Both the position numbers and the translations under genes were made by a program. Shown piece by piece: positions 9,132 through 52,087 of a DNA stretch of 64,000 bases. The notes under the pieces are model-generated. The model had not been told where the DNA came from. It saw nothing but the letters and a program-made list of their open reading frames with translations, and did not search any database. How positions within the stretch are numbered: position 1 is the stretch's first letter; every line of letters begins with the position of its first letter. This stretch comes from a virus, in the IMG/VR virus record IMGVR_UViG_3300009593_002680; one strand, given 5' to 3'.

Positions 9132-9247
9132 AAATAGTAGTAAGAGAACCACAAATACCTGTAGAAGGCGAACATACACTTTGTAATAGAGGTGAAGTTG
9201 CTGTATTTAGAAATGGTAAGTGGGTTAGACCAAATGAAGATAAGTGA
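9128..9247 (+). CDS. Small hypothetical protein (39 aa; not in ORF track)
   Basis: ATGA overlap with the upstream stop; MKIVVREPQIPVEGEHTLCNRGEVAVFRNGKWVRPNEDK. Confidence 0.45.
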   Translation: MKIVVREPQIPVEGEHTLCNRGEVAVFRNGKWVRPNEDK

Positions 9248-9389
9248 AATTATAGAATTCAAAGCACCTAAAAAGGTTTATGATAAACCACAAGACTATG
9301 TGGATGCTAGAAATCATAGATTTGACCAAATGTTTGGACACCCTACTAGAAAACTTAAGAAGAAAAAGTCCAAAAAGAAAAAGAAGTAA
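9234..9389 (+). CDS. Small basic protein with capsid-targeting-like N-terminus (51 aa)
   Basis: Start re-called at ATG 9234: MKISEIIE...KLKKKKSKKKKK. Confidence 0.6.
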   Translation: MKISEIIEFKAPKKVYDKPQDYVDARNHRFDQMFGHPTRKLKKKKSKKKKK

Positions 9390-9392
9390 TGT

Positions 9393-10475
9393 ATGTCCTC
9401 TTTAATAGATTACAAATTATTGGAAACACCGACCAAGGGCCTTATTCCTTTAGCAAAAAGGAACAACGAACTTAAACATAACATTACAAATGACTGTACT
9501 ATACCCCATAGGAGTCTAAACATAACAACAAAAGGCGAATGTTTCATAGATAACTGTGAAATGTATTTGCCTTTTGTTATATGTAATATATTAGATTTAG
9601 AACGTTTACAAGATGTTTGGTCAAACCCTTTAGCAAGAGAATTACAGAAAGATGTAGAAGATAAAAAATTTACATGGTGTGCTGTAGAGCATTGTAGAAT
9701 TATGGAAAGGGATTTGCATTGGATAAACAATAAAGGGCAAGAATTTTATAGCATATATGTAAATGTAGATGAAAGTTGCAATCTTGCATGTCCAAGTTGT
9801 AGGACAGATATGATATTGCATACACAAGGTGACGATTATAACAGACAATATGCTTATGCAGAACATGTTGTTAAACTATTACGCAACTTCAAAGAACGAA
9901 CACACATAACTCTTACTGGAAATGGCGATCCTTTAGCAAGTAACATAATGAGACCGCTTGTTACTAACTGGATACCAAATGAAAATCACACAATTACATT
10001 GTTTACAAATGGATTGTTAATGAGTAAACAACTTCCTGACAGTAAAATACTTCCAAACATAAGTGAATTTAAAATTAGTATAGACGCAGGATCTAAAGAA
10101 GTATATGAAATAGTCAGAAGACCGGGTAAATTTGAAAAACTTATAGAAAATTTAGATTGGATGCATGAAAACAAAAACACAGCCGGTTCATTTCAAAAGG
10201 GTTTTCACAAAGAAGGTCCTAATATACACTTTAGATTTGTATGTCAAAAAGCAAATGCACATGACGTTGTTAATTTTGTAAAACTAGCAGAACGTTATGA
10301 TGCTGAATGCTCTATATCTAGATTAGACGATTGGGGAACATTTGATAATTTTGCAGAAGAGGACGTAGTTGACCAATTAGACCATCCGTTAAGGCCCGGA
10401 TTTTTAGAACAAATACGTGAAGTAGTAGATTTACCTTATGTATCTATACCATATAACATAACGAAGTACTTATAA
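9393..10475 (+). CDS. Radical SAM protein with N-terminal SPASM/twitch-like Cys region
   Basis: CNLACPSC (CxxxCxxC), GNGDPL, FTNG, ISIDAG. Confidence 0.88.
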   Translation: MSSLIDYKLLETPTKGLIPLAKRNNELKHNITNDCTIPHRSLNITTKGECFIDNCEMYLPFVICNILDLERLQDVWSNPLARELQKDVEDKKFTWCAVEHCRIMERDLHWINNKGQEFYSIYVNVDESCNLACPSCRTDMILHTQGDDYNRQYAYAEHVVKLLRNFKERTHITLTGNGDPLASNIMRPLVTNWIPNENHTITLFTNGLLMSKQLPDSKILPNISEFKISIDAGSKEVYEIVRRPGKFEKLIENLDWMHENKNTAGSFQKGFHKEGPNIHFRFVCQKANAHDVVNFVKLAERYDAECSISRLDDWGTFDNFAEEDVVDQLDHPLRPGFLEQIREVVDLPYVSIPYNITKYL

Positions 10476-10493
10476 CATAGTATAAATAGCAGT

Positions 10494-10991
10494 ATGACCA
10501 AAAAATTAGAAGAAGAATTTAATTTACCACCAATGGAAGAAGCAACTGCAAAAGAAAATGCAGATGCGACAGAGAAATTTGATGTACAAGAAGTTACGCA
10601 AGTAGATATAGAAGATGTTCAAACAGCATTAAGTAATGCAGAAAAAATAGACCTTGCATTAAAAAATGTAAAAGGGTTAGATGAACATGATGAAGAAATG
10701 GATGACATTGGACAACAAGCAATTGACAGTTATCAACAGTTAATGAACTTAGGTATGAATGTTGGAGACAGAGAAGCAGGTAGTATTTTTGATAGTGCCG
10801 CCAAAATGTTAAAGACAGCCTTAGAAGCCAAAGAGAGTAAAATCGATACTAAATTAAAACAAATTGATTTAATGATTAAAAAAGGCAGACTGGATAACAA
10901 CACACAATCAGCAAGTAATACTGCAAGTGGTGGCCCTGCAGTAGATAGAAACGAACTACTTAAAATCATCAACTCTGATAAAAAAGAATAA
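10494..10991 (+). CDS. Terminase small subunit (gp16-like)
   Basis: Helical ...AAKMLKTALEAK...KLKQIDL pattern; exact TATAAATA at 10481; lies upstream of TerL. Confidence 0.65.
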   Translation: MTKKLEEEFNLPPMEEATAKENADATEKFDVQEVTQVDIEDVQTALSNAEKIDLALKNVKGLDEHDEEMDDIGQQAIDSYQQLMNLGMNVGDREAGSIFDSAAKMLKTALEAKESKIDTKLKQIDLMIKKGRLDNNTQSASNTASGGPAVDRNELLKIINSDKKE

Positions 10992-11035
10992 TTTTACCTT
11001 ATTTTGATAAATAAGTACATACGGAGTTATTAACA

Positions 11036-11740
11036 ATGAGAGAACTTAAAGACATTATAACCGAATCATTCAACAAAGAATACGGTTATAGAATTAAACT
11101 AGCAAGAGACTGTTCAGCAGATGACTTATCTAAGTTAGAAAATGCTTTGCAAAAGTATAACCTTGTTAGTGCTACACCTTGGAAAAGGTTACCAATACAA
11201 GAAAACCCAATTGAGTTTAAAAGACTTAAAGGTTTAAACACTACATCTGAAGTTTGTAGTACTGATGTTATTTTAAAATACCCAGTCAACGAAAGAATTT
11301 TAGAAGTATATGTAGCAGTTGCTTGTGGTTGTGACCATGAACGTGTTATTGTTATGGGTGTAGACAGTCCAAAAAGAATCGAAAGTGAAATGGCTGAAGA
11401 AAGACTTGCTAATGATAAAGATAGACAAGTAGAAGTTCCAGAAGCAATTTTAGATGAAGTAGATAGTTCCGCAGACCAAGAGCATTACGAAGCACAACAA
11501 GAAGGTGTTAGTGATGGTCCATTATTTGGTGAAGAATACAATGCTAAATTCTTAGCAGAGTTAGAAAAAATCAAAGCAGAAAAAGGCGCAGATTACTTCC
11601 GTAACTATCCTAGTAAAGATGGTATAATGGGAGATGATTTAGCCGCGATGCATGATACAATAACTGGTAAAGCACACGGTGGATTGGCACCAGAGGCTAA
11701 ACAAGTTGATGTAATATCACAAAGTTCTAGAAGAAACTAA
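11036..11740 (+). CDS. Putative virion/head protein
   Basis: MRELKDIITES N-terminus; late promoter at 11006. Confidence 0.55.
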   Translation: MRELKDIITESFNKEYGYRIKLARDCSADDLSKLENALQKYNLVSATPWKRLPIQENPIEFKRLKGLNTTSEVCSTDVILKYPVNERILEVYVAVACGCDHERVIVMGVDSPKRIESEMAEERLANDKDRQVEVPEAILDEVDSSADQEHYEAQQEGVSDGPLFGEEYNAKFLAELEKIKAEKGADYFRNYPSKDGIMGDDLAAMHDTITGKAHGGLAPEAKQVDVISQSSRRN

Positions 11741-33722: not shown

Positions 33723-33754
33723 ATGATAAATATGCATATAAGATAGGAAATAAT

Positions 33755-34021
33755 ATGTCTATGAGAAAATCGAGGAGCATTTTAGAAGAGTTAAACTCTA
33801 TCAGTGTTGATAGAAGTCGTCATCATGTTCTCGAAAATAGAGTACAACATTTAGTTAGTAGTGCTGAAAACATTAAAGCAATTCTACGTGAATCTTATAG
33901 TCCAGAAGAAGCATTGGACTTAGAACGTAGACTAATAAACTCAATTAAATCAGGTGATTCTAAAAAATTCTCTCGTGGCATAAAGAAAGTTGTTGCGGAG
34001 AGCGAATCAAATGAGAGTTAA
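33755..34021 (+). CDS. Hypothetical late protein
   Basis: GATAAATA at 33725; 88 aa. Confidence 0.6.
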   Translation: MSMRKSRSILEELNSISVDRSRHHVLENRVQHLVSSAENIKAILRESYSPEEALDLERRLINSIKSGDSKKFSRGIKKVVAESESNES

Positions 34022-36537: not shown

Positions 36538-37604
36538 ACATACCAACAGATGTAGAAAATTTTATAGGTAGACTTAATCCAATGGAAGTTGGAGTAGATA
36601 CTGTTGGCGATTATGTTATACATTATGAAGGCTTTAGTGATGAATGCAATGATGGATATGATGATGAACAAATACATCAAATTTATAAAGATGTTTATAA
36701 AGACTTCGATGAACGTTCAAATGCAAAACCAATAAAACGTGGTCATACATATGATGAATTAGGTGTTGACCATAATCCTGTGTTGTATAGCATTTATAAA
36801 AAAGAAGATGTTAAAGAAAGTAAGTTTTTACTTATTGATGAAGATTTAAGCGAAAGTAGACTGTTTAGATTTACTATGAGTTTCCAAAGATTAACTGGCA
36901 GAGATGTTTGCGACTTATTATATGCAGAAACACTTGCAACATATATGTTTGCATTAGATGAAAAACAACAAGATTATGGAACTGCATACGCAAGAAAAAC
37001 AACACAATATGGTCCTTATTCAGTATTTAGAACTAGTGCAACGGATATATACATGCTGGCTTTTGCTATTAATCAACCTGATTACAAGTCATTAAAGTTA
37101 GATCCTAAGGATAGAAGAATGTTAAACAACCTTAGTTTTAACAATAGACAGCACTATATGTTTATGAACAAAATTGCTAGATATACACCTAGTAGAAGTG
37201 ATGCTAGTTCGTACTTAATTAGATTAGAAGCACAATTAAAAATGAGTATGTCTAGACATGGTGCTCTCTTTAAGCAATTTAGAAGATTAATTTTAGATTG
37301 GCCAGATTTAAAATACAGTCAAAAGCAGTATGTTATTGCAAAACTAATGCAAATAATTAGATTAAAAGGTAAAGGTACAGAAATATTCCCACATTTGGTT
37401 GCAATGAAAACTAGTAGAAGATATGATAATGTTAAACCAGCAAAACCAACAAGCAATTTGAAAAGAGCCGCCGCTACAGTTGGTGGTGCTTATGTTGGTA
37501 GCAAGTTAGTTCCTAAACTTACTAAGAATAAATTAGGAAGTAAAACTGGTGCTGGTATAGGAGCCATTGCAGGTTATTGGGCAAGTGGACGTAAAAAAGT
37601 ATAA
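36534..37604 (+). CDS. Hypothetical virion protein with C-terminal glycine-zipper-like segment
   Basis: Internal LSES; C-terminal AAATVGGAYVG...TGAGIGAIAGYW. Confidence 0.6.
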   Translation: MNIPTDVENFIGRLNPMEVGVDTVGDYVIHYEGFSDECNDGYDDEQIHQIYKDVYKDFDERSNAKPIKRGHTYDELGVDHNPVLYSIYKKEDVKESKFLLIDEDLSESRLFRFTMSFQRLTGRDVCDLLYAETLATYMFALDEKQQDYGTAYARKTTQYGPYSVFRTSATDIYMLAFAINQPDYKSLKLDPKDRRMLNNLSFNNRQHYMFMNKIARYTPSRSDASSYLIRLEAQLKMSMSRHGALFKQFRRLILDWPDLKYSQKQYVIAKLMQIIRLKGKGTEIFPHLVAMKTSRRYDNVKPAKPTSNLKRAAATVGGAYVGSKLVPKLTKNKLGSKTGAGIGAIAGYWASGRKKV

Positions 37605-37612
37605 ATACAGTT

Positions 37613-38158
37613 ATGAGAATCAACGAAGTTTTAAATAGTAAAAATTATATCACAGAAGAAGACACTATGACTTTGGCTGATGTACAAGTTATGTATGGCG
37701 ATGATCCTGAAATGATGGCGGCTATACAAAAAGCAAAGATGTTACCAAAAATTAAAACTTGGGACCAAGCAATAGATAAAGCAAGTGCTGATATGCGTAG
37801 AAATGCTAACAAAGGTCAGCAAGCCGCACCAGATAGAAAATTTGCATCTAACAGTAGAGCAAAAGGATGGGACGATGAAACTCATGGTCATTTAAGAAAA
37901 GCAAAAGCAAAAGCCGCCGCAAAAGCACAAAAACCTATGTCAGGTGATGGCGAAACAGGTGAAATTAATAGAGCCGCTGGCACTTTCATGAAGTCTGTTG
38001 GCGATGCTATGGATACAATAAAACACGGTTCAATGGGAGACATCAATACTGCTGTAGACAGAGGAAAACACGTAGGTAAAGACGGCATGGAACTGTGGAA
38101 TGTAACGGCAAAAACAAAACGTTCTAAAGACAGAGGCGGAAACTTCGGCTCTAGATAA
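37613..38158 (+). CDS. Putative internal head protein
   Basis: TATAAATA at 37600; MRINEVL...ITEE. Confidence 0.6.
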   Translation: MRINEVLNSKNYITEEDTMTLADVQVMYGDDPEMMAAIQKAKMLPKIKTWDQAIDKASADMRRNANKGQQAAPDRKFASNSRAKGWDDETHGHLRKAKAKAAAKAQKPMSGDGETGEINRAAGTFMKSVGDAMDTIKHGSMGDINTAVDRGKHVGKDGMELWNVTAKTKRSKDRGGNFGSR

Positions 38159-39068: not shown

Positions 39069-39119
39069 GACTACATGTTCTGACAAAAGTGATAAATACA
39101 AGTTATACAGGAGACACAC

Positions 39120-39524
39120 ATGAGTTTGAATAGAAAAGGAGCGATGGGCTCCGTAGAAGTACTAACAGGTAACATAGAATTTTTTACTTTGTTTACTACT
39201 TTGGATATAACAGTAACAGGTGATTATAACGATAGTAGTCAAAAAGACTTCGAGAGTGTAGTTCAATGTATAGGATTAAGAGCGATGCCAACAGTAATGA
39301 ATAACCCAGTAGCATTAAACGGTAGTGGTTCAAATGTTTTAGAAAATTATGGTGCACCAACTTTAACTGGTTCAGGATATATTTTTAAATTTGCCACAGA
39401 GATACCTGGTGCTCATAGTGTAGATACATTAAAAGATGAACTAAATGGAATTGTATTGAACGCAGGAGTTATAGATACCAAGAGTACTGTTAATATGGAA
39501 TTTACTAAACAGGATCTATTATAA
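39120..39524 (+). CDS. Small virion protein (paralog 3)
   Basis: Own late promoter (39091); MSLNRKGAMG. Confidence 0.65.
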   Translation: MSLNRKGAMGSVEVLTGNIEFFTLFTTLDITVTGDYNDSSQKDFESVVQCIGLRAMPTVMNNPVALNGSGSNVLENYGAPTLTGSGYIFKFATEIPGAHSVDTLKDELNGIVLNAGVIDTKSTVNMEFTKQDLL

Positions 39525-39790
39525 TGAAAAAATCAGAACAGCAAGGAAAATTAGACCAACAGTTAGAACAAAACAAACAAGTTTATGCTGAGTCTAATAA
39601 TTTAGAAGCACACATTATTGCTGACATGTTGCGTATTGAAAGCATTACGACAGAGTTAAGAGAGTTTAAAGAAGATACAAAACACAGATTAAACAAAATA
39701 GAGAATTGGCTAGTTGCAATAGTAGGAACATCATTTACAACACTTATTGCAATAGTAGTTGGTTTACTAGTAAACCTATTTGGAAGTTAA
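39524..39790 (+). CDS. Coiled-coil protein with C-terminal transmembrane helix
   Basis: RLNKIENWLVAIVGTSFTTLIAIVVGLLVNLFG. Confidence 0.6.
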   Translation: MKKSEQQGKLDQQLEQNKQVYAESNNLEAHIIADMLRIESITTELREFKEDTKHRLNKIENWLVAIVGTSFTTLIAIVVGLLVNLFGS

Positions 39791-39791
39791 T

Positions 39792-40091
39792 ATGAGATTA
39801 GACGAAATAGTTAATGAAGAAGAAATTTTTGAAGCCCGAATGGTTTGGCGTAAAATGGGTAAGAAAATTAAACGTGCTGTAAGGTGTACAACCGGCAGAC
39901 GTAAAGGTAGAGTTGTGAGTAACCCAGCACAATGTTCTGCTCCCATTAATATGAAAAAACGTATGGTATTAAAAAGAACAAAAGCAAAAATGGGTAAACG
40001 TCTTAGCAGAAAAGCAAACAGAACTAAAAGACTTAATCCAGCAAGTAGACGTTTAAGACAGTTAAACAGAAGTACTAGAGCCAGAAGATAA
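39792..40091 (+). CDS. Arg/Lys-rich putative internal head protein
   Basis: Start re-called at 39792: MRLDEIVNEEEIFEA followed by a highly basic body. Confidence 0.65.
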   Translation: MRLDEIVNEEEIFEARMVWRKMGKKIKRAVRCTTGRRKGRVVSNPAQCSAPINMKKRMVLKRTKAKMGKRLSRKANRTKRLNPASRRLRQLNRSTRARR

Positions 40092-43000
40092 TGAAGTTTA
40101 AAGATGTTAAAACATTAGAAAGCATATTACTGGAATACGGAATGAAGTCTGGTTCCAGCACACCAACTGCTCAACAGCAGACTGGTTCAAATGCAAAAGC
40201 AAACAAAACTAAAAGTCCAACAACATCTAACACACCTAAAAAAGCAGACCAAGGCAGTCCAACTGTAGGCGATAAAAATGCACCAGAGCCTATAGAGCCA
40301 CAACAACAATCAGCAAAAGATATTGAAAAAGATGCAGTAATTGTAGGAAAAGATAATAAAAACAAAAAAGTTGTATCACCCGTAGGTCAAGGAAACTTAC
40401 CAGATGCAATGGTAGTACAAGATGATGATGGCGAGTATGAAGTTATTGACCAAAATGAAAAGGTTGATGCACTATCCCCAGAAGATGCAGAACAAGTAGG
40501 AAAAGATCCTAGTTTACTAGCAAAAGGAAAAGGTGCCTTTGGCGCCGGAGCAGGTGCTGTTGATACAATAGCAAATTTAATGGCATCAAAAGACCCTAAT
40601 GTAAAAGAAGGCAAAATACGAAAACGTATTAATAAAAAAGCACTTAATAAATTAAAGCCTAGAGTAAGACAAGAAAAAGGTAGAGTTAAAAAACTTGCAA
40701 AAATAGGATTAAAAGAAGCACCTGAAAAACTATTCGAAATAAATTTTAGAAACAAGGACGTTATTAACAGTTCACTTGATGCACAAATACGTTGTGGTTG
40801 GGAGGCAGAAACTGTATGGGAAAATATATCAGGACCTAGTGATGATATAGACAACTTAACTCTTAATGAAGTTGATGAACAGTTTGGCGGCGTTGATTGG
40901 GACGGTTTATCAGAAAGTTATACAGAATGGTTGTATGATAACAAAGTAGAAGAATTTATAGATGACCTAATTCAAGAATTCATCAACGAACGTGAAGATG
41001 ACGAAGATTATATCAATGAATTTATAGAAGATGAAGGCATAGAAGAATCAGATTGGGATGATTACAGAGAAGGTGTACTAAGAACTGAATACGGTGATGA
41101 AAGATTTGAAGAAGAAGGTGCTGATGAATTGTCTGAATTGTATGGATATGAAGATGAAAATTGGGCAAGAGAATATGTTGATGAATATAGAGGCAGTGAC
41201 TTTAGAGAATACTTAAGAAACATAGCAGAAGAAGATGATGATATAAAACAAGCGGCATACGAAGAAGCCAGTGAAAATTATGATTATGACGATTATATCA
41301 ATGACACATATTACAGCATGAGTGAATTCTGTGATAATTGGGACATTGATTACAGTAGCGGAGGTAATTTAGAAGAAGTAGCAGACAAATTAGAAGATTG
41401 GATATCCGGCCAGAGTGCTTTCCACGACCATAGACCTGACACAGGTTCATATGGAGATACTAGTGGAGATACTACAGAATATGCTGTTGAAACAGATAGT
41501 AGTATTGATGGATATGGTACTGGTGCTGAAATTATATCACCTGTGTTTAGTACTCCAAGAAGAATGTTAAAAGAAATGGACAAGTTCTTTAAGTTTTTAC
41601 AAGGTGAAGGAGTTGTAACAAATAATAGTACTGGATTACACATTACTATGAGTTACTTTCCACAAGAAGGCGAAACTGTAAGTCATGAAGAAGGTTCAAG
41701 CAACGTAACAGCAAATAAAGTTAAGATGGCTGTATTGCTAGGCGACCAATACTTGTTAAGTCAATGGGGAAGGGACCGCAACACTTATACAAAGAGCCAA
41801 TTAAAAGAATTACAAACAGCAATTCAAAACTTAAAGAGAGAAGGGCGAGGAACAGATGCAATTAAAGAAGCAGAAAAATTTTTAGCAAAACACATCAGTG
41901 AAGATAAGTTCCGCTCAATACATTTTAAAGGTCAAACAGACCAAAAAACAAAAACAAAATTAATAGAATTTAGAATAGGTGGTGGAGAAGACTACCATGA
42001 AGAATTTAAAAAAGTGTTTAGTTCTGTAGTAAGATATGCTACTACAATGATTGCTGGACACACGGATCAATATCAAGGTGATTATGTAAAAGCATTACTT
42101 CGATTAATGAATAACATGGATAAAATAGCAACCAGCGATGAAGAAGAAGTAGAAAATTTAAAAAATCAACATTCAGACTACGCAGGACATCCTATTTTAG
42201 ATACACATAAAGCAATAGTAGGTGCTAAACACTATTTAGATTTTACTCAGAAAATGCTTAATTCAATGGAAGATTTACACAAAGCATCATTGTATCTAGA
42301 TCCAAAAGCAGACAAGAAATGGAAAAAGGAATGGGTAGACTTTTTAAAAGGTACCGGCAGTAATTTGGATGATTATGATAGTAAAATAAGAAAAGCATTA
42401 GACAAGATTCCAGGTAAAAAAATTACAGAAGATAAAGATAGAGAAGACCAGTCTATTAAAGCATATATGCAACCTGAAACAACACCACCTAGTGAAAGAG
42501 CATCTGATAGACGTAAAGACGGTTTACGAAAATTTAGTGAAGCGATGGGTATGGTAGCAGTAGATATTAGTAATAAGACTGCAAGGTCACAACCTAATGC
42601 TAAAAGTATTGGAGCATTGAGAAGTTTCTTAAAAGAGCATGAGATTTCAGATACTGAATTAGACTTAAACATAAGAAATGCTTTAACTGATATAAACTTT
42701 GGCTCTGGTGAAGATACTAAAAACACTCAAAAAGCCAAACTGGAAACACTTAGACATGGTATTAATACTCTTATACAAAGAGATATTATATCTAGACCAG
42801 ATTATGCAACTAGTCCGCAAGTCGAAGCAATGGCTAAAGGTCTTTGGAATGCTTTTAATGATGAAAAATTTGATGATAGAGCAAGAAAAGAATTAATACA
42901 ACTAGTAATTAATATGCGTACAGGTGACCTATCACAAGGTTCTGTGGACGATACAGAAGTTAAAAGAGATGTAGCAATACTTCTTGACCAAGCAAAAGAC

Positions 43001-46000
43001 AAAAGAGAGTTTAATGACTTTTATAATACAATAGTTGGAAGAAGGTTAACCACTGGTCACCCAGATGGAGTTTTAACACCTGGTAGTATTTTCTCCAAAG
43101 CAGATTTTGATAAATTGGTAAGTTTCCTTAAAGGGTTTGAATCTTATACACAACCTGTAAACAGATATCACAATCCTAATTTATATAATGATGATAGTTA
43201 TGAAGAAAATTCATTAAGCAAATACACATTATTGTTAAGAAGAAGATTTGAATATTTAGAAAATCAGTTTGATAGTGACAAATCATTAGCAACACAATCT
43301 CTAGAGAGAATGTCTAAATTAGTAGAAACTTATTATCAAGAAAATCAATCAGGACAGTTTGAATGGCCCGACATATTTGGTATAGATGAATTAGAATTAA
43401 GAAATCCAGAACCAACTGATCCTAGAGTTAAAAAAATGTCTGAAGAAGATAAAGATACAATATTAGATTTATATGGAGACAATGACGGAACACCTTATTT
43501 AGGAATAAATTCGTATAAAGTAGAAAGAATTCAAAGTTCATTAGATGATATTGCTAGAGGTGATGTAGAACGAAGAACAATTTCTAATATGAGTGAATTT
43601 GTTACAGATAGTATTAGAGAGGCACTAGGAGCCTATTATAGAAACAAAGAAAGATATCCAGAGTATTACAAATTTGAAGAAGTTAAAAATCTTATTAAAG
43701 AAAGATTTGAAGGCTTGCGAGATTTTATGCGAGGCATTGACAAAATTTTTGTAGATAATGGATTTGATAGTCAAGATGAAATTATTAAACGTAAGCAACA
43801 AATAGACAAAGACGCAAAAGAATTTGCAAAACTTCAGAGGAATAAACCTTTAGCAACTGTTAATTTACCTTCCCATTCTATAATGTATATGGACAACATT
43901 TCATATGAAAGATTTGAAGAGTATGTTGACGAAAGAGAAAATTCAGATGATACTGATGCACCAGTGAATACTGCAAGAGATGTAGTTAAAAAAATAATTG
44001 CGGGTGCTAGGCAAGTGAATGGTCATGTAAATTCCGGACATGCATCAATATATGTAGTACCAGCGGCACATTGGGGTCCATGTGGAGATGCTGTTAATGG
44101 AATGGAAATTATTAAACTACAACAACGAGTTGGTAACATGTCCCAAGCATGGCGTGTAAAAAATTACCATGCCTTGCTTGAAAAGTTTGCAGAAACATAT
44201 CAAGAAAATTTCGAACGATTACAAAGGACAGACTTATATAAAGTTATTGATGGAACAGATAGGTCAAAATTAAGCAAACACTTTGGAATACAGTTTACTG
44301 GTAAATTAGATGGTAGAACAGGAATGGGAGATGTAGAAGACTTAATCCCAAGAGAGAAGTTAAACAATAAGTATTCAGGTGAACCATTAGATAGAAATAG
44401 TGCTATTAGTTGGGCTATAAACAATGACGAAAATGAGAAGAAACAATTCCACGCATATGATTTTGCAAAGTATCACGGTAACGAAGCAGATAAAATTAAA
44501 GAACTAGTTGCTAAAGAAATGAAAGACAACGATAGAAGTTTTGGTGTTGCTATACAAAAAGTAATGGAGCGAAGTCCAAAAGGCGTAATGGTAATAGATA
44601 ATGACAAAATTGCAAAAGCGGCTGGTGTTGAACACATGGAACGTGAAGCATCTAACACTATTCAAGATGCCACAAATTGGGGCAACCTAGCAGACTTCTT
44701 TAAAATAGAAAGAGGTGTAGACAATCAAGGTCCAAACATGTTAGAGAAAGTTTCTAGAACATTTGACGGTGACCATAATTGGAGACCAGAGCCAAACCCA
44801 GATGCTTGTTGTTTGGAAAGATGGGTAGCATGTGTAAAACATGCCACCGAGTATATCAAAATGAATTATACAGTTAGTGCTGGAAACTATTTTAGAAAAG
44901 AAAATGACGGCAGTCCGGGTGATGACGTAGGTTCTATTTATGGTGATTCAGGAAGTAATCCTCCACCAAGCAGAAGAGGACGAGCAGATGGTGTCGGCAT
45001 CACATATAATAGCGATGAAGAAGTAACTGAACAAGATTACGAAAAAGTCAGATCCGAATATATTGATTTTGATAGGATGATGAATGCGGGTATGCAAAAT
45101 TATATGGTCAGACCCGACGTAAACTTATTGGTAGGTTTCTTGAAGAATCCAAACAATGATGAGGAATTCAAACAGGCTGTTTTACAAAGCATGATGAAAG
45201 AAAAATTACTAGGTTCAGAACCAAACGATTGGCAAGGTCATTTAGCAAGAGCCAGACAGTTTTATGCAGATAGATATAATGAGAGTGTTTTTGATAGATT
45301 CGATAAACTACCTTTACAAGAACAATTAATTATTTTAGAAAAATCAACTGTATTATCTGAGATAAGTGATACTAAAAAACGTGAACTAGAATATGAATTA
45401 AGGAATGAACCTAAAAATAACTATGCTGTAATTATAAATGGTAAAACGTGGAAAATAGTTTCTAGTGAAGACAGAGCAAAAAAGATGGTTAACACACTTG
45501 TAGGAAAAGGCAAAGATGCTAGGTATAGTGAAACAGGTCAACCAGTTAATGAAAGTGTACCAACTATTAAAACAACAAAAATTTTAAATGATATATTAGC
45601 AGACCATTTTCCAGTAGGTGACCTTAAGAAACAAATGTTAGCCTTTCATGCTATACCTATTCCTCAAATGTTAAATCAGTTTAGAGAGTTAAGAGGAGAA
45701 GCAGGTGATGATGCATGTGCAAGAGGCATTGTAAGATACTATGTAAATGCATTACCAAAAGAACAACAAGACCAAATAGAGTTAAATGAATGGGCAAAAA
45801 GCAAAGTTAGAAGTTTAATAGAATCCAAAGGTATTATGGGCAGAGTACAAGGTGATACTTTTTTAAAAGGAGATGATAGATTAGAGTTTCAAAGTGTAAC
45901 TTTATACCCTACAGAAGAAATGGAGTTTAACTCTCCTGAACAAAGAGATGATTTTATACAACAATTAGAACAAGAACTAAACAGTCAAATAGAATGGACA

Positions 46001-47149
46001 AATACTCCTAATAAAGGTAGTTTAGCATTTGGTGTGGCAATACTAACAGACCCTGCATTAGATGATAAAATAACATATTGGGGAAGATACTTTAAACAAA
46101 AAACAGCAGATATGATGGGTAAATGGAGCAATAGCCAAGTACCTGTGGGTTGGAAACTACAAACTGCTGGAGCAATGAAGTTAGATATTGGTATTGATCC
46201 ACAGCACTTGATTAAAACAGATGACCCCTTTAATGGTGTCTTAGACGTCATACAAGCAGTCAAAACTAACTCTGCCGGTAATGAACTATCTGAATCATTA
46301 GTCAACGCACTAGAGACTATACATACGCAAGAACACCCAGTATTTCCAGGTCAAATAGCAAACTTACCAGCATTAAGAGATTATTTTGGTGAGATTATGG
46401 GTCCAGTAGCATTAATGAGTGAAATGGTAGGTGGACAGGCAGATAATGCCAAAGCAGATTTATTAAAAGGTTTACCTTGGTCAAATTGTAGTATATTTTG
46501 GCACATGGCGATGAATGCCCCACTAGTTGATAGTTACTTTACAGCACCAGACGGTACTAGAGTAGGTATTAGTAGTAAAGGCGGTAAAGGTGCAAAAGCA
46601 AGTGTTAAAAATATACAAGATGCTATATTAAAAGCACCAGAAGAATTAAAAGCACAATATCCTACAACAGTTAATGTTATTAATATTGTACAAAGCAATA
46701 GTGCTAAAGATGGTCCATTTAGATTAGCAGAATTATATAATATTTTACCACAAGGATTAGAAGAAGAAATAAATGGATATATTCAAGAAGGAAAACAAGA
46801 CTATGCTGGATTAAGTCCTGCATGTACAGAATTATTCAATTACGGAACACCAAGACAAGATGTACCAGGATTTAATACAGGTTATGCTATGTTGGCTCTA
46901 CTTGCTAAAAAAGTAACAAAAGCAATAAACACATCAGGTCCAGAATTTGGACAAGGCTGTGTAGCATTCCTTAACCAATCCAGCATTGTACAGTTGTATT
47001 GCAAAATGGGTAAAATGGGTGACGATGCTAGAGTAACAGGATGGGAGGCTGTATATCCGCCAAACTTCCAAGGTACAGTAGAAATAGATGGCAGTAAAAA
47101 TTACTACAGTTCGAGAATAGGTGGTAAGTTTGCCTTTGGATTTAAGTAA
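40091..47149 (+). CDS. 2352-aa multidomain virion protein: amidoligase (COOH-NH2 ligase type 2) domain plus C-terminal PD-(D/E)xK-like module
   Basis: GWEAE...ETDSSI...AEIISP...STGLHI...KFRSI...IEFR amidoligase motifs; PLVDSYF...GISSKGG near the C-terminus. Confidence 0.75.
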   Translation: MKFKDVKTLESILLEYGMKSGSSTPTAQQQTGSNAKANKTKSPTTSNTPKKADQGSPTVGDKNAPEPIEPQQQSAKDIEKDAVIVGKDNKNKKVVSPVGQGNLPDAMVVQDDDGEYEVIDQNEKVDALSPEDAEQVGKDPSLLAKGKGAFGAGAGAVDTIANLMASKDPNVKEGKIRKRINKKALNKLKPRVRQEKGRVKKLAKIGLKEAPEKLFEINFRNKDVINSSLDAQIRCGWEAETVWENISGPSDDIDNLTLNEVDEQFGGVDWDGLSESYTEWLYDNKVEEFIDDLIQEFINEREDDEDYINEFIEDEGIEESDWDDYREGVLRTEYGDERFEEEGADELSELYGYEDENWAREYVDEYRGSDFREYLRNIAEEDDDIKQAAYEEASENYDYDDYINDTYYSMSEFCDNWDIDYSSGGNLEEVADKLEDWISGQSAFHDHRPDTGSYGDTSGDTTEYAVETDSSIDGYGTGAEIISPVFSTPRRMLKEMDKFFKFLQGEGVVTNNSTGLHITMSYFPQEGETVSHEEGSSNVTANKVKMAVLLGDQYLLSQWGRDRNTYTKSQLKELQTAIQNLKREGRGTDAIKEAEKFLAKHISEDKFRSIHFKGQTDQKTKTKLIEFRIGGGEDYHEEFKKVFSSVVRYATTMIAGHTDQYQGDYVKALLRLMNNMDKIATSDEEEVENLKNQHSDYAGHPILDTHKAIVGAKHYLDFTQKMLNSMEDLHKASLYLDPKADKKWKKEWVDFLKGTGSNLDDYDSKIRKALDKIPGKKITEDKDREDQSIKAYMQPETTPPSERASDRRKDGLRKFSEAMGMVAVDISNKTARSQPNAKSIGALRSFLKEHEISDTELDLNIRNALTDINFGSGEDTKNTQKAKLETLRHGINTLIQRDIISRPDYATSPQVEAMAKGLWNAFNDEKFDDRARKELIQLVINMRTGDLSQGSVDDTEVKRDVAILLDQAKDKREFNDFYNTIVGRRLTTGHPDGVLTPGSIFSKADFDKLVSFLKGFESYTQPVNRYHNPNLYNDDSYEENSLSKYTLLLRRRFEYLENQFDSDKSLATQSLERMSKLVETYYQENQSGQFEWPDIFGIDELELRNPEPTDPRVKKMSEEDKDTILDLYGDNDGTPYLGINSYKVERIQSSLDDIARGDVERRTISNMSEFVTDSIREALGAYYRNKERYPEYYKFEEVKNLIKERFEGLRDFMRGIDKIFVDNGFDSQDEIIKRKQQIDKDAKEFAKLQRNKPLATVNLPSHSIMYMDNISYERFEEYVDERENSDDTDAPVNTARDVVKKIIAGARQVNGHVNSGHASIYVVPAAHWGPCGDAVNGMEIIKLQQRVGNMSQAWRVKNYHALLEKFAETYQENFERLQRTDLYKVIDGTDRSKLSKHFGIQFTGKLDGRTGMGDVEDLIPREKLNNKYSGEPLDRNSAISWAINNDENEKKQFHAYDFAKYHGNEADKIKELVAKEMKDNDRSFGVAIQKVMERSPKGVMVIDNDKIAKAAGVEHMEREASNTIQDATNWGNLADFFKIERGVDNQGPNMLEKVSRTFDGDHNWRPEPNPDACCLERWVACVKHATEYIKMNYTVSAGNYFRKENDGSPGDDVGSIYGDSGSNPPPSRRGRADGVGITYNSDEEVTEQDYEKVRSEYIDFDRMMNAGMQNYMVRPDVNLLVGFLKNPNNDEEFKQAVLQSMMKEKLLGSEPNDWQGHLARARQFYADRYNESVFDRFDKLPLQEQLIILEKSTVLSEISDTKKRELEYELRNEPKNNYAVIINGKTWKIVSSEDRAKKMVNTLVGKGKDARYSETGQPVNESVPTIKTTKILNDILADHFPVGDLKKQMLAFHAIPIPQMLNQFRELRGEAGDDACARGIVRYYVNALPKEQQDQIELNEWAKSKVRSLIESKGIMGRVQGDTFLKGDDRLEFQSVTLYPTEEMEFNSPEQRDDFIQQLEQELNSQIEWTNTPNKGSLAFGVAILTDPALDDKITYWGRYFKQKTADMMGKWSNSQVPVGWKLQTAGAMKLDIGIDPQHLIKTDDPFNGVLDVIQAVKTNSAGNELSESLVNALETIHTQEHPVFPGQIANLPALRDYFGEIMGPVALMSEMVGGQADNAKADLLKGLPWSNCSIFWHMAMNAPLVDSYFTAPDGTRVGISSKGGKGAKASVKNIQDAILKAPEELKAQYPTTVNVINIVQSNSAKDGPFRLAELYNILPQGLEEEINGYIQEGKQDYAGLSPACTELFNYGTPRQDVPGFNTGYAMLALLAKKVTKAINTSGPEFGQGCVAFLNQSSIVQLYCKMGKMGDDARVTGWEAVYPPNFQGTVEIDGSKNYYSSRIGGKFAFGFK

Positions 47150-47150: not shown

Positions 47151-48152
47151 ATGCGATTAATAGAATTACAGATAGAACGTCCAAAGTCAGACAAAAACTT
47201 CCCAAGAAATATAATGCCTCAAATAAGAAAAGGCGATATACAAGATTCACCTTTTGAATACTCTAAAGAAAAAATAGATATAGAGAAACTAATGCCTGTA
47301 CAAAACCAACGTGTACAAGGTATGCATGATAGAGCAAAGAAGGGTTTTGATGATGGTAGCATAAGACCTATTGTAGTTGATAAAAATAATTATATTGTAA
47401 ATGGACATCATAGATTTGATGTTGCATTACAAATGGGTTTAAAGAAAATTAAAATATTAAGAGTTGATGCTACAATAGAAGACTTAATTGACCACTTTAG
47501 TAATACATCAAGTGATGCACCTACATTTGAAGAAATAATGAAACTAAAGTTAGCAAAAGCAATGGAAGGTGATGTTGTAGATTTCCCTGGAACGTATTAT
47601 AAAAAGGAATATGTTACTATAAATGGCGTAAAGATGCTCAGAGATGTTTGGGACTATATGAGCCAAGACAGAGAACATGCCCATGGATATGATGATAATT
47701 ATGTTCCAACCCATAAAGGTCTCACTAATTTTACAGGCGATGAAGATCCAAGAATTTTAAAGAGAGCATATCAAATGGAATTGAGAAACTTTATAGATGA
47801 ACTTGAAAACAATGACTTTGATATGGACCCACAACCATTTATAGATGAACTAGACCGAATAGATGAAGATTGGGCAGAAAGATACAATCTAAATCCTAGT
47901 GTTAAAAAATATGTAGATGATAACTTATGGAAATTGTCTACTGTAGACGTAAAAGATTTAGATGACGAAGCACACGATGACCAATTTGGTAGAGTAATTG
48001 ATGTTGACCCAGAAGATGCAGATAGTGTCCATTTAGATGACCCAATAATAGTACATGCTGATGGAAAAACAGTACTAGATGGCTTTCATAGAGTTTATAA
48101 AGCAAAAGAGTTAGACGTAAAAGTATTACCAGCATATATACCTAAGCAGTAA
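47151..48152 (+). CDS. Protein with two ParB/sulfiredoxin-like domains
   Basis: Start re-called at 47151 (MRLIELQIE); PIVVD...IVNGHHR and PIIV...VLDGFHR. Confidence 0.7.
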   Translation: MRLIELQIERPKSDKNFPRNIMPQIRKGDIQDSPFEYSKEKIDIEKLMPVQNQRVQGMHDRAKKGFDDGSIRPIVVDKNNYIVNGHHRFDVALQMGLKKIKILRVDATIEDLIDHFSNTSSDAPTFEEIMKLKLAKAMEGDVVDFPGTYYKKEYVTINGVKMLRDVWDYMSQDREHAHGYDDNYVPTHKGLTNFTGDEDPRILKRAYQMELRNFIDELENNDFDMDPQPFIDELDRIDEDWAERYNLNPSVKKYVDDNLWKLSTVDVKDLDDEAHDDQFGRVIDVDPEDADSVHLDDPIIVHADGKTVLDGFHRVYKAKELDVKVLPAYIPKQ

Positions 48153-48173: not shown

Positions 48174-49484
48174 ATGCAAATAGCACACATCCAAAATCCT
48201 TTTTATGAGTTTATTAAGTCTTGTAATGAGCCTTGGATAGATATTGACAATATTCCAAGAACTAGTAGAGACCATATACTTGGTACATGTACATTTTTTG
48301 ATACATATTGGAAAGACATTAATAAGATAAGCAACTATATTCCTACATTATATATTATAAGTTTAGATGGTATAGGCTCTAAAGAGTTATATAAGATTTG
48401 GGAAAAACATCATTTAACAAATAAAACACTAATACCTGAGCATATTATAAACAATGATAAAGCAGTAATACTATTTGATAATAGTGCTGAAGGACATTGT
48501 GATGAATATATGTTTAAGTTCGTATCTCAAGTAGTTGACATGTATAAGTTAAATCCTAACACAACATTTTATGGTAATAGTGCTATTAATATTAAAGAAA
48601 TACACGAAAAGACAGACTATAAAAATTTTAAAACAATGTATCTTGCTAATTTTCAGGAAGATACTATGGCAGAATTATATGACGAATTAAAAGATTTAGA
48701 AGTTACATATGATAATAAAACTAATTTGTTTAGTTGTTTAAATAATGCTCCAAAACCACACAGAGCATTATTGCTAGGTGCTATACCAAATACAGTAGAT
48801 AGTTTAATTAGTACTCCAACTGTAGACTGGCAAGACATACATTCTAATACTATTGAATACTTGTTAGAGCAATCAGAGAGAAAACAAATATCTGCAGATG
48901 ATTTTGACGAAGGATTAAAATATTTAAACAGTTTAAAAGAATCGTATCCTAGAACAATAGATGATAGAACAGATGATGTTGTACACATGAAACAAGTTTC
49001 TGCAGACAATGACTTTATTAACAAATTATTAGATTGTGATTTTCAGTTAATTACAGAAACTTTTTGTGACCACACATTAGTAATTACAGAAAAAATCTTT
49101 AAAGCAATAATTATGAAACAACCTTTTGTAATTTTAGGACCTAACAGAATATATAAATTCTTACAACAACGTGGATATAAAACATTCGACCATTTACTTG
49201 GCTTAAACACATGGAAAGGTACAAGTAATTATGATAGTGAAACTAATGTTATTAGCAAAATAAAGTTTTTAATACAGCATTTAGAGACATTATCCATGTA
49301 TAAAGACAATAATACACAATGGCAAGAGATAGAACAAAAGAATAAATTAGATGCAGAACATAATTTTGAAGTATTTAAAACTAATATGAATAAAATTATA
49401 GGCTCTGCCACTGACGGTTTAGATAGTTGGTTAGAAAATTATGAAGATTTTAATATGCTTTTTGAAATTGATATAGATAAATAG
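48174..49484 (+). CDS. Glycosyltransferase-like protein (GT10-related phage family)
   Basis: FSCLN..PKPHR, ITETF...TEKIFKAI...PFVILG...GYKTFD. Confidence 0.55.
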   Translation: MQIAHIQNPFYEFIKSCNEPWIDIDNIPRTSRDHILGTCTFFDTYWKDINKISNYIPTLYIISLDGIGSKELYKIWEKHHLTNKTLIPEHIINNDKAVILFDNSAEGHCDEYMFKFVSQVVDMYKLNPNTTFYGNSAINIKEIHEKTDYKNFKTMYLANFQEDTMAELYDELKDLEVTYDNKTNLFSCLNNAPKPHRALLLGAIPNTVDSLISTPTVDWQDIHSNTIEYLLEQSERKQISADDFDEGLKYLNSLKESYPRTIDDRTDDVVHMKQVSADNDFINKLLDCDFQLITETFCDHTLVITEKIFKAIIMKQPFVILGPNRIYKFLQQRGYKTFDHLLGLNTWKGTSNYDSETNVISKIKFLIQHLETLSMYKDNNTQWQEIEQKNKLDAEHNFEVFKTNMNKIIGSATDGLDSWLENYEDFNMLFEIDIDK

Positions 49485-49488: not shown

Positions 49489-49680
49489 ATGAAAATTAAA
49501 GATATCATAATTAATGAAACAGCATCAGTAGGAGGCATGAGTGCAGGAGCAGTTGCAACAGTAGTTAAGCCTATTGCTAATGATGTCCAACGTGTTGTTC
49601 AAAAACCTAAGAAACCTAAAAAGATAGGCAAAAAGAAACCAGGACCTAAAGGTAAAAAAAGTACTTTACTAAGGAGATAG
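49489..49680 (+). CDS. Small Lys-rich putative internal protein
   Basis: MKIKDIIINE|TAS...KPKKPKKIGKKK; late promoter at 49476. Confidence 0.65.
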   Translation: MKIKDIIINETASVGGMSAGAVATVVKPIANDVQRVVQKPKKPKKIGKKKPGPKGKKSTLLRR

Positions 49681-49681
49681 C

Positions 49682-49900
49682 ATGAGAATAGTTGTTTCTA
49701 AACATGGCCCAACGTTTTGCAGTTCTAAAGAGTTTCAGTTATTTGACAAACTTCGTCACGAAAAAGGTATATATGAATGTAACCTTTCTGAAAATGATAT
49801 ACACACATGTAATGAATTAAGACAAAGAGGTTTAGTTTTAAAAATTAATGATAATGGTCAAACAAAATACAAAGTCTACCCGCAAGAAGAGACTAACTAA
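49682..49900 (+). CDS. Hypothetical protein (possible winged helix)
   Basis: 72 aa; coupled. Confidence 0.5.
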   Translation: MRIVVSKHGPTFCSSKEFQLFDKLRHEKGIYECNLSENDIHTCNELRQRGLVLKINDNGQTKYKVYPQEETN

Positions 49901-50342
49901 AAAGCAGAAAGAAGCAATCGCTTCAAAATTAGAAAATACTGTAAAAGGTGTTAGCAAAAGAGGTTTATTTTTTAAATCAAAAGATAAATTTGGCGAATGG
50001 ACTATTGTAGATGGTAAAACAAAACAAGAAGTTTTTAAGAATATTATATTAGTAGAGTCTGCTAATATGATGCTTAAAACACTTAACAAAGCAAATCCTA
50101 AGCAATTACAAAAAATAATACCAAGTTTTCACGAAACACTATATGCATATCAACAACCAATATGGAAACATATGAATGATATATTCTTTTATAAGCACAC
50201 AATGAAAACCACTAAAGATACTACTTTATTCCATGCCACAGAGGCAAGAGTAGATATGTCATTAATGAAATTACGTCATAGTAGAGAAGAATTACACAGT
50301 AAATTAGACATAAATTCACTCCACGGCATACACCTAGCCTAA
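49848..50342 (+). CDS. Hypothetical protein
   Basis: 164 aa (start may be 49854). Confidence 0.55.
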   Translation: MIMVKQNTKSTRKKRLTKKQKEAIASKLENTVKGVSKRGLFFKSKDKFGEWTIVDGKTKQEVFKNIILVESANMMLKTLNKANPKQLQKIIPSFHETLYAYQQPIWKHMNDIFFYKHTMKTTKDTTLFHATEARVDMSLMKLRHSREELHSKLDINSLHGIHLA

Positions 50343-50421
50343 ACCCGTCCAAATAAAAACGCAAAATTTTTGCGATAATTGATAAATACAATTAACAAAT
50401 TATCATTATCGGGAAAATAAA

Positions 50422-51729
50422 ATGAAAATTAACAATTTTAACAAAACAGGTTTAGATAAGGTAAACGAATTAAATTCTTACCTTAAAGAAAACCATGGAG
50501 TTAAAGTAAGTGGCTTTCATCCTAAAGCAAGACTTGAAAAAGTCAGAGAACAGGCACAAGCACACGTTATTACTTTAAGAAACTCCAACAAACAATTTAA
50601 TTTAGATCCAGAATACGCAAAGTATTTAGGAGTAAAAGACGTCATAGACGTTATGCTTGAAGAAGGTCTATATGCAGACAGTCCTGCAGTTGCTGGCATG
50701 AAAGAAGAACTTTATGCTACAGTACAGAACTTAATGGACAGTGGCTATACAATGGACGAAGCAAGTAAAGAATGCATGAACAAATTCAGAAAAGATTCCC
50801 GATACGCATATGATGATGAATTTGTTTTACCGATTGTTTTAAAAGCCGCCAAAGACTATTTAGAAAGTTGCGGTAGCACTCATGAGTCGATTGAAGAAGC
50901 ACCTGCAATTAACGAGTTCCTTTTAAGAGAACTTGCTAAAGAATGTGGTGTTGCATTAGAAGACCAAACAAGTATGGTAGCAATAGAAGAAAAATTAAAC
51001 ATGTTTGCTGAAATTAGTGGCAAAAGCAGAGATGCAGTTGTTGAATTTTTAAATACTTTAGAAGAAGATTCTGTAAATGCTGGAATACAAATGTTTGGCA
51101 AGAAAGTTGCAGAACAAAATAAATTTACCGGTGCTAGAAAAGATGCTATTGCTAAAGGCGAAAATAACTTTGAAGTAGATGGTAAGCAATATAAAATCAC
51201 AGGTGATACTTCCGACGAAGAAGAACAAGTAGAAGAAAGTATGTTTGACGACATCATAGATGAAATGTTAGCAGAAGAAGTTAATGTTGAAGAAGCAGAA
51301 GTTATTATGGCGGCTAGAGCATTAGCAGATGATGTACAAGACATGATTGCTAGATTAGGTAAAATGGTAAATGAAGATTTACCTGCAATACAAGACCAAA
51401 TGAGAGCAGAACTAGGAGCAGAAGTTGCCGCTGGTTTCCAAGACTCAATGGTTAGTGCAGTTGATGGACATTTAGCACAAACTAAAGCAACAAAACAAAT
51501 GATGGACGATGCTATTGGAACGTTATCAGGCGAAGCACCTATGGATTCAGGTATGATGGCAGATGAGCCAATTGATGCACCTATGGACGTAGATGCTCCT
51601 GTTGATGCAGAAGTACCAGTAGATGACGCAATGGATGTAAATGATCCTGCGGCGGCTGGACCAGAAGAAGAGCCACTAGGTAGAGCACCTGTAGACGCAC
51701 CAGAGCCTAAAGACCCAGAAGGAGTCTAA
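50422..51729 (+). CDS. Prohead core/scaffold-like protein
   Basis: Late promoter at 50381; acidic helical protein with many xxE sites; Asp/Pro/Ala tail ending EEPLGR. Confidence 0.6.
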   Translation: MKINNFNKTGLDKVNELNSYLKENHGVKVSGFHPKARLEKVREQAQAHVITLRNSNKQFNLDPEYAKYLGVKDVIDVMLEEGLYADSPAVAGMKEELYATVQNLMDSGYTMDEASKECMNKFRKDSRYAYDDEFVLPIVLKAAKDYLESCGSTHESIEEAPAINEFLLRELAKECGVALEDQTSMVAIEEKLNMFAEISGKSRDAVVEFLNTLEEDSVNAGIQMFGKKVAEQNKFTGARKDAIAKGENNFEVDGKQYKITGDTSDEEEQVEESMFDDIIDEMLAEEVNVEEAEVIMAARALADDVQDMIARLGKMVNEDLPAIQDQMRAELGAEVAAGFQDSMVSAVDGHLAQTKATKQMMDDAIGTLSGEAPMDSGMMADEPIDAPMDVDAPVDAEVPVDDAMDVNDPAAAGPEEEPLGRAPVDAPEPKDPEGV

Positions 51730-51730
51730 A

Positions 51731-52087
51731 ATGCGAATACGTGACGTATTCCTATTAGAGGCATACTACGATGACTTGCAAGTTGCAATCATGGATAGGC
51801 TTACACAATACTTAGGCAAAGAAGTCAACGATATCCCAACAGATGAATTTAGAATGGCATTAGCAGATGATGGCTTTATGTTAAGTTTTGAAGAAATGAA
51901 AGCCGCAATGGAAGAAATGGGTGTAGTTGCTAACATAGGTCCTGACAGTATTACACCAAAAGGCAAAGTTCCAAATGACCTTGCAGAACCAGAAGGTGAA
52001 GAAGAATTTGCTGAACCAGAAGTAGACGTTGGCGATATGGCTGGCGACCAGGCAATGTCTGCCGTAAAAGACGAACTCCCACAATAA
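51731..52087 (+). CDS. Acidic putative head protein
   Basis: MRIRDVFLLE. Confidence 0.6.
   Translation: MRIRDVFLLEAYYDDLQVAIMDRLTQYLGKEVNDIPTDEFRMALADDGFMLSFEEMKAAMEEMGVVANIGPDSITPKGKVPNDLAEPEGEEEFAEPEVDVGDMAGDQAMSAVKDELPQ

Follow-up and report, generated by a model that had tools for sequence, protein, structure and literature searches.

A T4-like N-terminal motif on late proteins of an uncultured jumbo phage, a probable capsid-targeting propeptide

The locus and its shared N-terminal motif

We analyzed a stretch of 64,000 nucleotides from the IMG/VR virus record IMGVR_UViG_3300009593_002680 (hereafter the window) and, within it, a short N-terminal motif, here called the tag, that recurs on ten predicted proteins encoded between positions 9234 and 52087. 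Genes of the window all lie on the + strand, and G+C is ~34%. The nearest cultured relative is the Pseudomonas jumbo phage PA5oct, with 42% identity in the tail sheath and 57% in the large terminase. The window is syntenic with PA5oct 118–164 kb, and the two share the gene order dNMP kinase, sheath, tube, head closure, terminase, UvsX, primase, helicase, virion-protein island, exonuclease and ribonucleotide reductase. For one gene among those for recombination (20907–22649, 580 amino acids [aa]), BLAST finds no PA5oct counterpart. Comparison of 14 kb with INPHARED by megablast returned 0 matches among sequenced phages. IMG/VR holds hundreds of related contigs, including one of 340 kb (G001). 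The window therefore belongs to the genome of a jumbo myophage of the T4 superfamily that is abundant but uncultured, and a marine origin is suggested because the record of one relative comes from the Tara ocean collection.

An earlier note on this DNA had listed ten N-termini of common form. All ten are present on the + strand, namely (by position of the first nucleotide, which also serves as gene name below) 9234 MKISEIIE, 11036 MRELKDIITES, 34011 MRVKDIIE, 35263 MRVQEF..LLTES, 37613 MRINEVL..ITEE, 39792 MRLDEIVNE, 40091 MKFKDV..ILLE, 47151 MRLIELQIE, 49489 MKIKDIIINE and 51731 MRIRDVFLLE. A strict pattern, M-[RK]-[ILVFM]-x-[DE]-[ILVFM], is found at 9 of the 72 N-termini of the window, compared to 0 of 493 internal methionines and 0 of 576 other ATG-started open frames. 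From the internal rate, 0.07 such N-termini would be expected (Poisson P about 2e-16). The tags differ among themselves by synonymous codons (AGA/CGA, AAA/AAG, ATT/ATA/ATC, GAA/GAG and GAT/GAC) and, since the codons vary, conservation lies in the peptide and not in the DNA.

Four of the genes (9234, 34011, 39792 and 47151) start at the first ATG of an open reading frame (ORF) that also has an earlier in-frame GTG or TTG. Orthologs favor the ATG start for all four, with one exception: the ortholog of 9234 in L144 has an ATG seven codons upstream. The start of 9234, which is preceded by a GTG at 9192, is hence uncertain by a few codons. The strict tag is retained in 43 of 46 orthologs of 35263, 21 of 30 of 39792, 10 of 10 of 49489 and 6 of 9 of 9234; orthologs missing the strict pattern mostly have near-variants of it, such as ML-I-x-E-V or MN-I-N-E-I. 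In 80 loci centered on the helicase gene, the pattern was found in 124 ORFs, every one of them on the strand of the genes. The claim that replication genes lack the motif also stands, as the tag is absent from several hundred orthologs of the genes from w22661 to w33755. By matrix score, the ten tagged N-termini of the window reach at least 6.9, the next (50422) 3.8 and the rest at most 0.9, a gap that arises partly by construction, with 9 of the 10 tags in the training set. The N-terminal signal is real, statistically strong and, as described below, modular.

Every tagged gene lies downstream of a (T/G)ATAAATA box in a co-directional unit. This box occurs 25 times on the + strand of the window, 20 times in intergenic DNA, which makes up 5% of the window (P 4e-22). 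It resembles the T4 late promoter, and on this sequence likeness the tagged genes are predicted to be expressed late. One box, GATAAATA (11007..11013, +), lies 29 nucleotides before 11036. Two others head longer units: the box at 33726..33732 (+) precedes 33755-34011-35263-36534, and that at 39092..39098 (+) precedes 39120-39524-39792-40091-47151. The boxes at 37601..37607 (TATAAATA, +) and 49477..49483 (+) each stand 12 nucleotides before the ATG of a tagged gene (37613 and 49489, respectively), with no Shine-Dalgarno sequence between. Six boxes in all (10482, 12035, 37601, 48161, 49477 and 52095) are followed by an ATG after only 12–13 nucleotides and lack a Shine-Dalgarno sequence, which suggests that six genes, the one for terminase among them, have late mRNAs that are leaderless or nearly so.

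Modularity of the tag and its likeness to the T4 signal

The 202 ORFs that bear the strict tag in the window, in G001 and in about 190 related loci sort into 20 families that have no BLAST similarity outside the tag, and in the related IMG/VR loci the tag always stands at the extreme N-terminus. The window member of the DUF6267 family (35263..36537, +) is a 424-aa enzyme that scores 344 bits against Pfam PF19782 (cut-off 27) over residues 27–421. It has a 25-residue tag, MRVQEFTKPLVTRLLTE/SAVVE/AEG (here and below, a slash follows the glutamate of a known or putative cut). In the clade of the window, DUF6267 proteins carry an indel-rich segment of 17–25 residues, which also varies in sequence, before an invariant KNTHLEHLED core (from K26 in 35263); this segment always opens M-[KRN]-h-x-[ED]-h and closes h-h-x-E-[AS], where h is hydrophobic. 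A tblastn search of cultured phages found DUF6267 in the T4-like cyanophages P-HM2 and S-8S55, where it is untagged and starts M[SA]KNTHLEHLED. A protein search with DUF6267 returned 6930 proteins at E 1e-5 or better, close relatives only, and no distant untagged homolog was among them. In these alignments the tag is a modular add-on, and DUF6267 is the cleanest case.

The tag also has a characteristic ending. Isoleucine at position 7 and glutamate at positions 8–10 are enriched in tagged ORFs, although the search pattern imposed neither. The sequence [ILVFM]-x-E is finished by residue 12 in 60% of tagged ORFs versus 14% of controls, and by residue 20 in 85% versus 29%. The residue that follows is S or A in 49% of tagged ORFs. 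By sequence, the tag would usually end in the cut motif of gp21, the prohead protease of T4, with [ILVFM]-x-E followed by S or A.

Mullaney and Black reportedly described in 1996 a capsid targeting sequence (CTS) on the internal proteins of T4, removed by gp21. This signal is sufficient to package foreign proteins (PMC8442874), gp21 does remove it (PMC5694885), and the internal proteins of T-even phages are diverse, sharing only the targeting signal (PMC3012670). The T4 N-termini are MKTYQEFIAE/A (IPII and IPIII), MKTFKEFTSTTTPVSTITE/A (IPI), MAKINELLRE/S (gp24) and MELITELFDE/D (Alt). MRELKDIITE/S of 11036 matches MKTYQEFIAE/A position by position, and MRVQEFTKPLVTRLLTE/S of 35263 has the same architecture. 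As in IPI, IPII, IPIII, Alt and gp24, the tag lies at the extreme N-terminus, spans 8–20 residues of the form M-K/R-(x)-h-x-E/D-h-h-x-E then A/S, and occurs on unrelated, partly very basic proteins with predicted late expression; relatives of the window also encode a gp21-family protease in a head module of T4 order. There are differences. The tag is usually one residue shorter before the hydrophobic core (MK-I-x-D-I versus MK-T-Y-Q-E-F) and, in the clade of the window, often has Arg at position 2. It marks about 20 families in this clade, enzymes of 400–2350 aa included, compared to about 5 in T4. Finally, the lineage is a distant jumbo-phage clade and not part of the Straboviridae, and the tag is known here from sequence.

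The likeness was quantified with a family-weighted matrix that was built from marine tags only and allowed one inserted residue after position 2. Among 268 T4 proteins, this matrix ranks gp24, IPI, IPIII and IPII at positions 4–7 (hypergeometric P 8e-7). Its top T4 match is gp61.1, an uncharacterized protein of 54 aa that begins MKTFKEFIKED (NC_000866, 18966–19130).

Two other known systems offer parallels. In the phiKZ-like phages SPN3US and 201phi2-1, head-internal and ejection proteins are cut after Glu by a gp21-related protease, and their propeptides have been proposed to target proteins to the prohead (PMC5694885, PMC7411985). However, most of those propeptides exceed 100 residues and the SPN3US cut motif is ALE (PMC5694885), whereas the tag resembles the T4 signal in both length and sequence. 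Polyvalent proteins and head-packaged effectors, such as P1 DdrB and T4 Alt, are likewise large late-gene proteins with enzymatic domains and predicted delivery with the DNA (PMC5512222). DdrB-like ParB domains beside virion genes are typical of this class, and the ParB-like P1 DdrB is head-packaged (PMC5512222). In contrast, the giant tagged protein of the window (40091) has one recognized domain, Amidoligase_2, and the loading proposed for it relies on a T4-type tag and an S77 protease.

The head module of G001 follows the T4 order: portal, a 66-aa tagged protein, an acidic core protein, a Peptidase_S77 protease, scaffold and major capsid protein. Its protease reaches 85.5 bits and shares 33% identity with gp21, and the segments GELDHP and GVSSRG align. 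The head layout is the same in PA5oct and in 7t3, a Rak2-like phage, both of which encode a small protein with a tag-like start between the portal and the protease.

PA5oct, a member of the Arenbergviridae, allows the tag to be compared with a virion proteome. Its genome has ten annotated strict-tag starts (gp408, gp333, gp309, gp279, gp254, gp246, gp213, gp103, gp104 and gp105). With detection by electrospray ionization tandem mass spectrometry (ESI-MS/MS) taken as an imperfect label of virion proteins, 7 of the 10 (gp333, gp309, gp279, gp254, gp246, gp104 and gp105) were found in virions, compared to 93 of 461 proteins overall (P 8e-4; PMC7318152). The paper that reports these data (Lood et al. 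2020; PMC7318152) says nothing of propeptides or of a signal for targeting. By BLAST, most tagged proteins of the window have no PA5oct homolog. Two tagged genes do have relatives with virion hits, namely 11036, a homolog of gp282, and 51731, a positional match to gp246. PA5oct also has a second annotated head-maturation-protease gene, gp212 (179881–181020), whose product was detected by mass spectrometry; it adjoins the tagged gp213 (MKIKEIILE, not detected) on the opposite strand.

Reading of the tag and competing explanations

Observed here were the motif and its modularity, its likeness to the signal of T4, the setting of tagged genes in late operons, an S77 protease and a T4-type head module in relatives, and the association of tagged PA5oct proteins with the virion. 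On the strength of these observations we read the shared N-terminus as a T4-type capsid-targeting propeptide, with a probability of roughly 0.7. Such a propeptide would have the form M-[KR]-h-x-[DE]-h-h and would end, within about 8–20 residues, in [ILVFM]-x-E, usually before S or A. The interpretation given in the earlier note is, taken as a whole, partly borne out. Its core, a T4-like tag for targeting and cleavage that marks virion proteins, is strongly supported on comparative grounds, namely by modularity, by cross-recognition of the T4 signals, by the S77 protease and head module in relatives and by the enrichment in the PA5oct virion.

In the mechanism that we envisage, the tag would steer late-expressed proteins into the scaffolding core of the prohead, where a gp21-family (Peptidase_S77) protease would cut after Glu and remove it, and the mature protein would then remain in the capsid with the DNA. 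The set so loaded would comprise three protamine-like peptides, the DUF6267 enzyme, a ParB-like protein, the 2352-aa protein with an amidoligase domain and several proteins of no assigned function. By analogy with T4, at least part of it is probably ejected into the host together with the DNA.

Several points weigh against this reading. In about 15% of tagged ORFs no [ILVFM]-x-E is completed within the first 20 residues, and the AlphaFold model is of very low confidence over the tag. Specificity in T4 is incomplete, in that the marine-tag matrix also ranks UvsY, which is not known to be a virion protein, and rI.-1 high. The genes for protease, scaffold and capsid lie outside the 64-kb window, their presence being judged from relatives, and for the phage of the window itself, presence in the virion is judged by proxy from PA5oct, while cleavage after Glu and injection rest on analogy with T4. 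Phage 7t3 has few strong tags (one to three), and we do not claim an expanded repertoire for all relatives. In PA5oct, 3 of the 10 tagged proteins (gp408, gp213 and gp103) went undetected by mass spectrometry; of these, gp408 is encoded in the early region and may be a chance match to the pattern. The PA5oct proteome also includes non-structural proteins, making a hit an imperfect sign of a place in the virion.

The strongest alternative, though an improbable one, is that the tag is only a recognition and cleavage site for the protease, or the mark of core (scaffold-like) parts that are degraded and expelled and never injected. In T4, gp67 and gp68 are prohead-core components with this fate. 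A tagged small protein occupies the gp67 position, the gap between portal and protease, in G001, PA5oct and 7t3, cleavage-type motifs are enriched in tags, and the T4 protease also degrades core proteins (PMC5694885). On the other hand, tagged PA5oct proteins, including gp333 (tag MKINDIITE) at the gp67 position itself, were detected in mature virions. Enzymes of 400–2350 aa and protamine-like peptides would be odd scaffold parts, and the corresponding T4 tag is sufficient to package foreign proteins (PMC8442874).

A destination other than the capsid interior seems less probable still. Under this explanation the tag would address its proteins to a tail or baseplate assembly chaperone, to the membrane or to a modifying enzyme that recognizes leaders. 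Mass spectrometry of PA5oct does not split head from tail, and G001 encodes 11 radical-SAM-like matches. However, the tag ends in an S77 protease motif, one and the same matrix recognizes it and the proven head signal of T4, and one tagged gene lies inside the head module of G001. Moreover, the tag is acidic and amphipathic in pattern, unlike a signal peptide. A leader function for a radical-SAM enzyme was rejected for want of gene linkage, as in G001 the tag island is about 18 kb distant from the nearest match and over 170 kb from the main cluster. The radical-SAM-like matches themselves (G001 4.9–13.8 kb and 334–337 kb, with 7 of the 11 clustered within 9 kb) are unusual for a phage.

It is very unlikely that the pattern reflects translation initiation or the mRNA of late genes, through A/T-rich early codons and leaderless or coupled starts, or an inherited 5' gene segment copied by duplication, with no role for the peptide. 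The genome is AT-rich, and several tagged genes start 12 nucleotides past a promoter box or couple directly to the preceding stop codon. However, codons vary synonymously while residue classes are kept, the abundant late genes for sheath, tube and terminase lack the motif, as do the leaderless-type genes 10494, 12047, 48174 and 52107, and 20 unrelated families as well as T4 conserve both the acidic and hydrophobic positions and the Glu that lies downstream.

Capsid targeting thus remains our preferred reading for the tag as a whole, while individual tagged proteins may be targeted to the tail or may be prohead-core components and not injected cargo. The principle is textbook knowledge from T4; what is new is a well-supported case on at least ten unrelated late proteins of an uncultured marine jumbo phage. 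More tentatively, at somewhat less than even odds, the tag may define a large, exchangeable 'injectome' of about 20 or more families, readable from sequence, that is packaged in the head, processed by the prohead protease and passed to the host along with the DNA. Such a set could hold, again with less confidence than an even bet, an amidoligase-bearing protein of roughly 260 kDa, a ligase-like DUF6267 enzyme, ParB-like nucleases and protamine-like peptides that condense DNA.

Proteins carried in with phage DNA are rarely known for uncultured phages, and they are often anti-defense or take-over factors. Should the tag act as its T4 counterpart does, sequence alone would suffice to list the capsid cargo of PA5oct, a cultivable therapy candidate, and of a widespread marine jumbo-phage clade, whose large size is indicated by the 6930 proteins returned with DUF6267. 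If the 'injectome' is true, the tag would be a genome-wide predictor of first-strike anti-defense effectors in uncultured phages of the T4 superfamily. The targeting role would also indicate where in the cell families without known function act, DUF6267 and the amidoligase giant among them, would suggest that the protamine-like peptides may help to pack the DNA of a genome over 300 kb, and would provide a short tag with which foreign proteins could be loaded into capsids other than that of T4.

Tagged genes of the window and their neighbors

The earlier note had described the tagged proteins as a toolkit of a ligase-like enzyme, an amidoligase, ParB domains and basic peptides, and these assignments fared differently. 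The label 'ligase-like' refers to the DUF6267 protein 35263. A K72-W-D-G75 motif is invariant in 25 DUF6267 orthologs, and Foldseek on the model of the protein (predicted local distance difference test score 67) gave weak hits to RNA and DNA ligases only (E 0.1–0.6, probability at most 0.16). A ligase-type fold was not confirmed. VIA-align of the model is dominated by helical bundles, and sequence and profile searches of the PDB returned no relative, with one hit at chance level (E 0.62). These data leave 35263 as possibly a nucleotidyltransferase. In cyanophages P-HM2 and S-8S55, the untagged DUF6267 gene lies between a hypothetical gene of 340–500 aa and 'cytidyltransferase' genes, an arrangement that recalls the trio 34011-35263-36534 of the window.

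For ParB, the assignment holds at the level of PHROG families. The tagged protein 47151 (47151..48152, +; 333 aa, MRLIE/LQIE/RP) matches ParB-like PHROGs with E 1e-10 to 1e-12, whereas its Pfam ParB_N score of 15 bits is below the cut-off of 26.3. The strict tag is present in 12 of the 22 hits of this family. ParB-like relatives range from 271 to 785 aa, and in some the ParB part begins 130–385 residues in; the tag, when present, is still at the extreme N-terminus, ahead of different first domains.

The amidoligase is the 2352-aa giant 40091 (40091..47149, +; MKFKDVKTLE/SILLE/Y), with Amidoligase_2 (PF12224) near residues 424–620. The domain is found in 16 of 18 orthologs, with a best E of 1.4e-7, while the copy in the window is sub-threshold at 13.9–14.8 bits (cut-off 22; E 0.03–0.05). 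The assignment is therefore likely for the orthologous group. The G001 ortholog has 1693 aa and a tag of the same kind. Pfam and PHROGs gave no second domain in the 2352 aa, and no peptidase (MPTase) or other polyvalent hallmark.

The basic peptides are as described, with isoelectric points (pI) of 10.3 to 12 for 9234, 39792 and 49489. The first (9234..9389, +) has 51 aa, a pI of 10.3, the tag MKISEIIE/F and a poly-Lys tail, and is conserved as an ORF of 49–58 aa in nine related loci. Gene 39792 (39792..40091, +) encodes 99 aa with a pI of 12 and 34% K+R, beginning MRLDEIVNEEEIFE/ARMVWRK. The tag varies among its orthologs, yet [ILV]-x-E-[ASNT] is mostly kept directly before an invariant RMVWR; one ortholog is without a tag by the first-ATG rule. 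The third peptide (49489..49680, +) has 63 aa, a pI of 11 and the N-terminus MKIKDIIINE/TASVGG. All three recall the basic internal proteins of T4 and are probably DNA-associated internal proteins.

For most tagged proteins of the window, PHROGs and Pfam gave no match. An exception is 11036 (11036..11740, +), a 234-aa virion protein with a tag variant one residue longer. It matches phrog_14802, a virion structural protein, and its PA5oct homolog gp282 is structural by ESI-MS/MS; orthologs begin M[RK][ED]LK[DE][IL]I[NTS]ES or MELKNYIAES. Gene 34011 (34011..35261, +) encodes 416 aa, in which the tag, MRVKDIIE/AP, is followed by a basic, Gly/Pro-rich variable region and a conserved C-terminal domain. 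In relatives, the gene at this position, after the gp259 homolog, nearly always has a tag-like start, position 2 being I, N or T in a few cases; E-A-P often comes next, and the ~100 residues after the start are hypervariable. The 181-aa product of 37613 (37613..38158, +), which begins MRINEVLNSKNYITE/E, belongs to a family with nine tagged ORFs in relatives.

Toward the end of the region lies 50422 (50422..51729, +), a 435-aa virion protein with a weak tag variant, MKINNFNK. It is a homolog of PA5oct gp247 and belongs to phrog_14154. Relatives begin MF[IL][KR][DE]FNQ, and gp247, which is virion structural by ESI-MS/MS, begins MFLKDVKITE/S. The next gene, 51731 (51731..52087, +), encodes an acidic tagged protein of 118 aa, MRIRDVFLLE/A. 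Its position after the gp247 homolog equals that of PA5oct gp246, an ESI-MS/MS hit that starts VKIKDILVE/S; BLAST of 51731 against gp246 found no homology.

Three neighboring loci deserve mention. The gene at 36534–37604 starts about 97 codons later in most relatives, where its N-terminus, MELQLINQELAE/S, resembles that of Alt and may represent another kind of tag, with h-x-E-S at its end; the copies in the window and in L072 have an N-terminal extension in its place. Between 38238 and 39524 are three paralogous small acidic proteins of 107, 123 and 134 aa, each with its own late-promoter box and none tagged. The third is a BLAST homolog of the PA5oct virion protein gp250, and the N-termini of the paralogs resemble those of gp250 and gp251. 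Finally, an 88-aa protein (39524–39790) is encoded directly upstream of the protamine-like 39792 in a common unit, and its hydrophobic C-terminal stretch is possibly a membrane helix.

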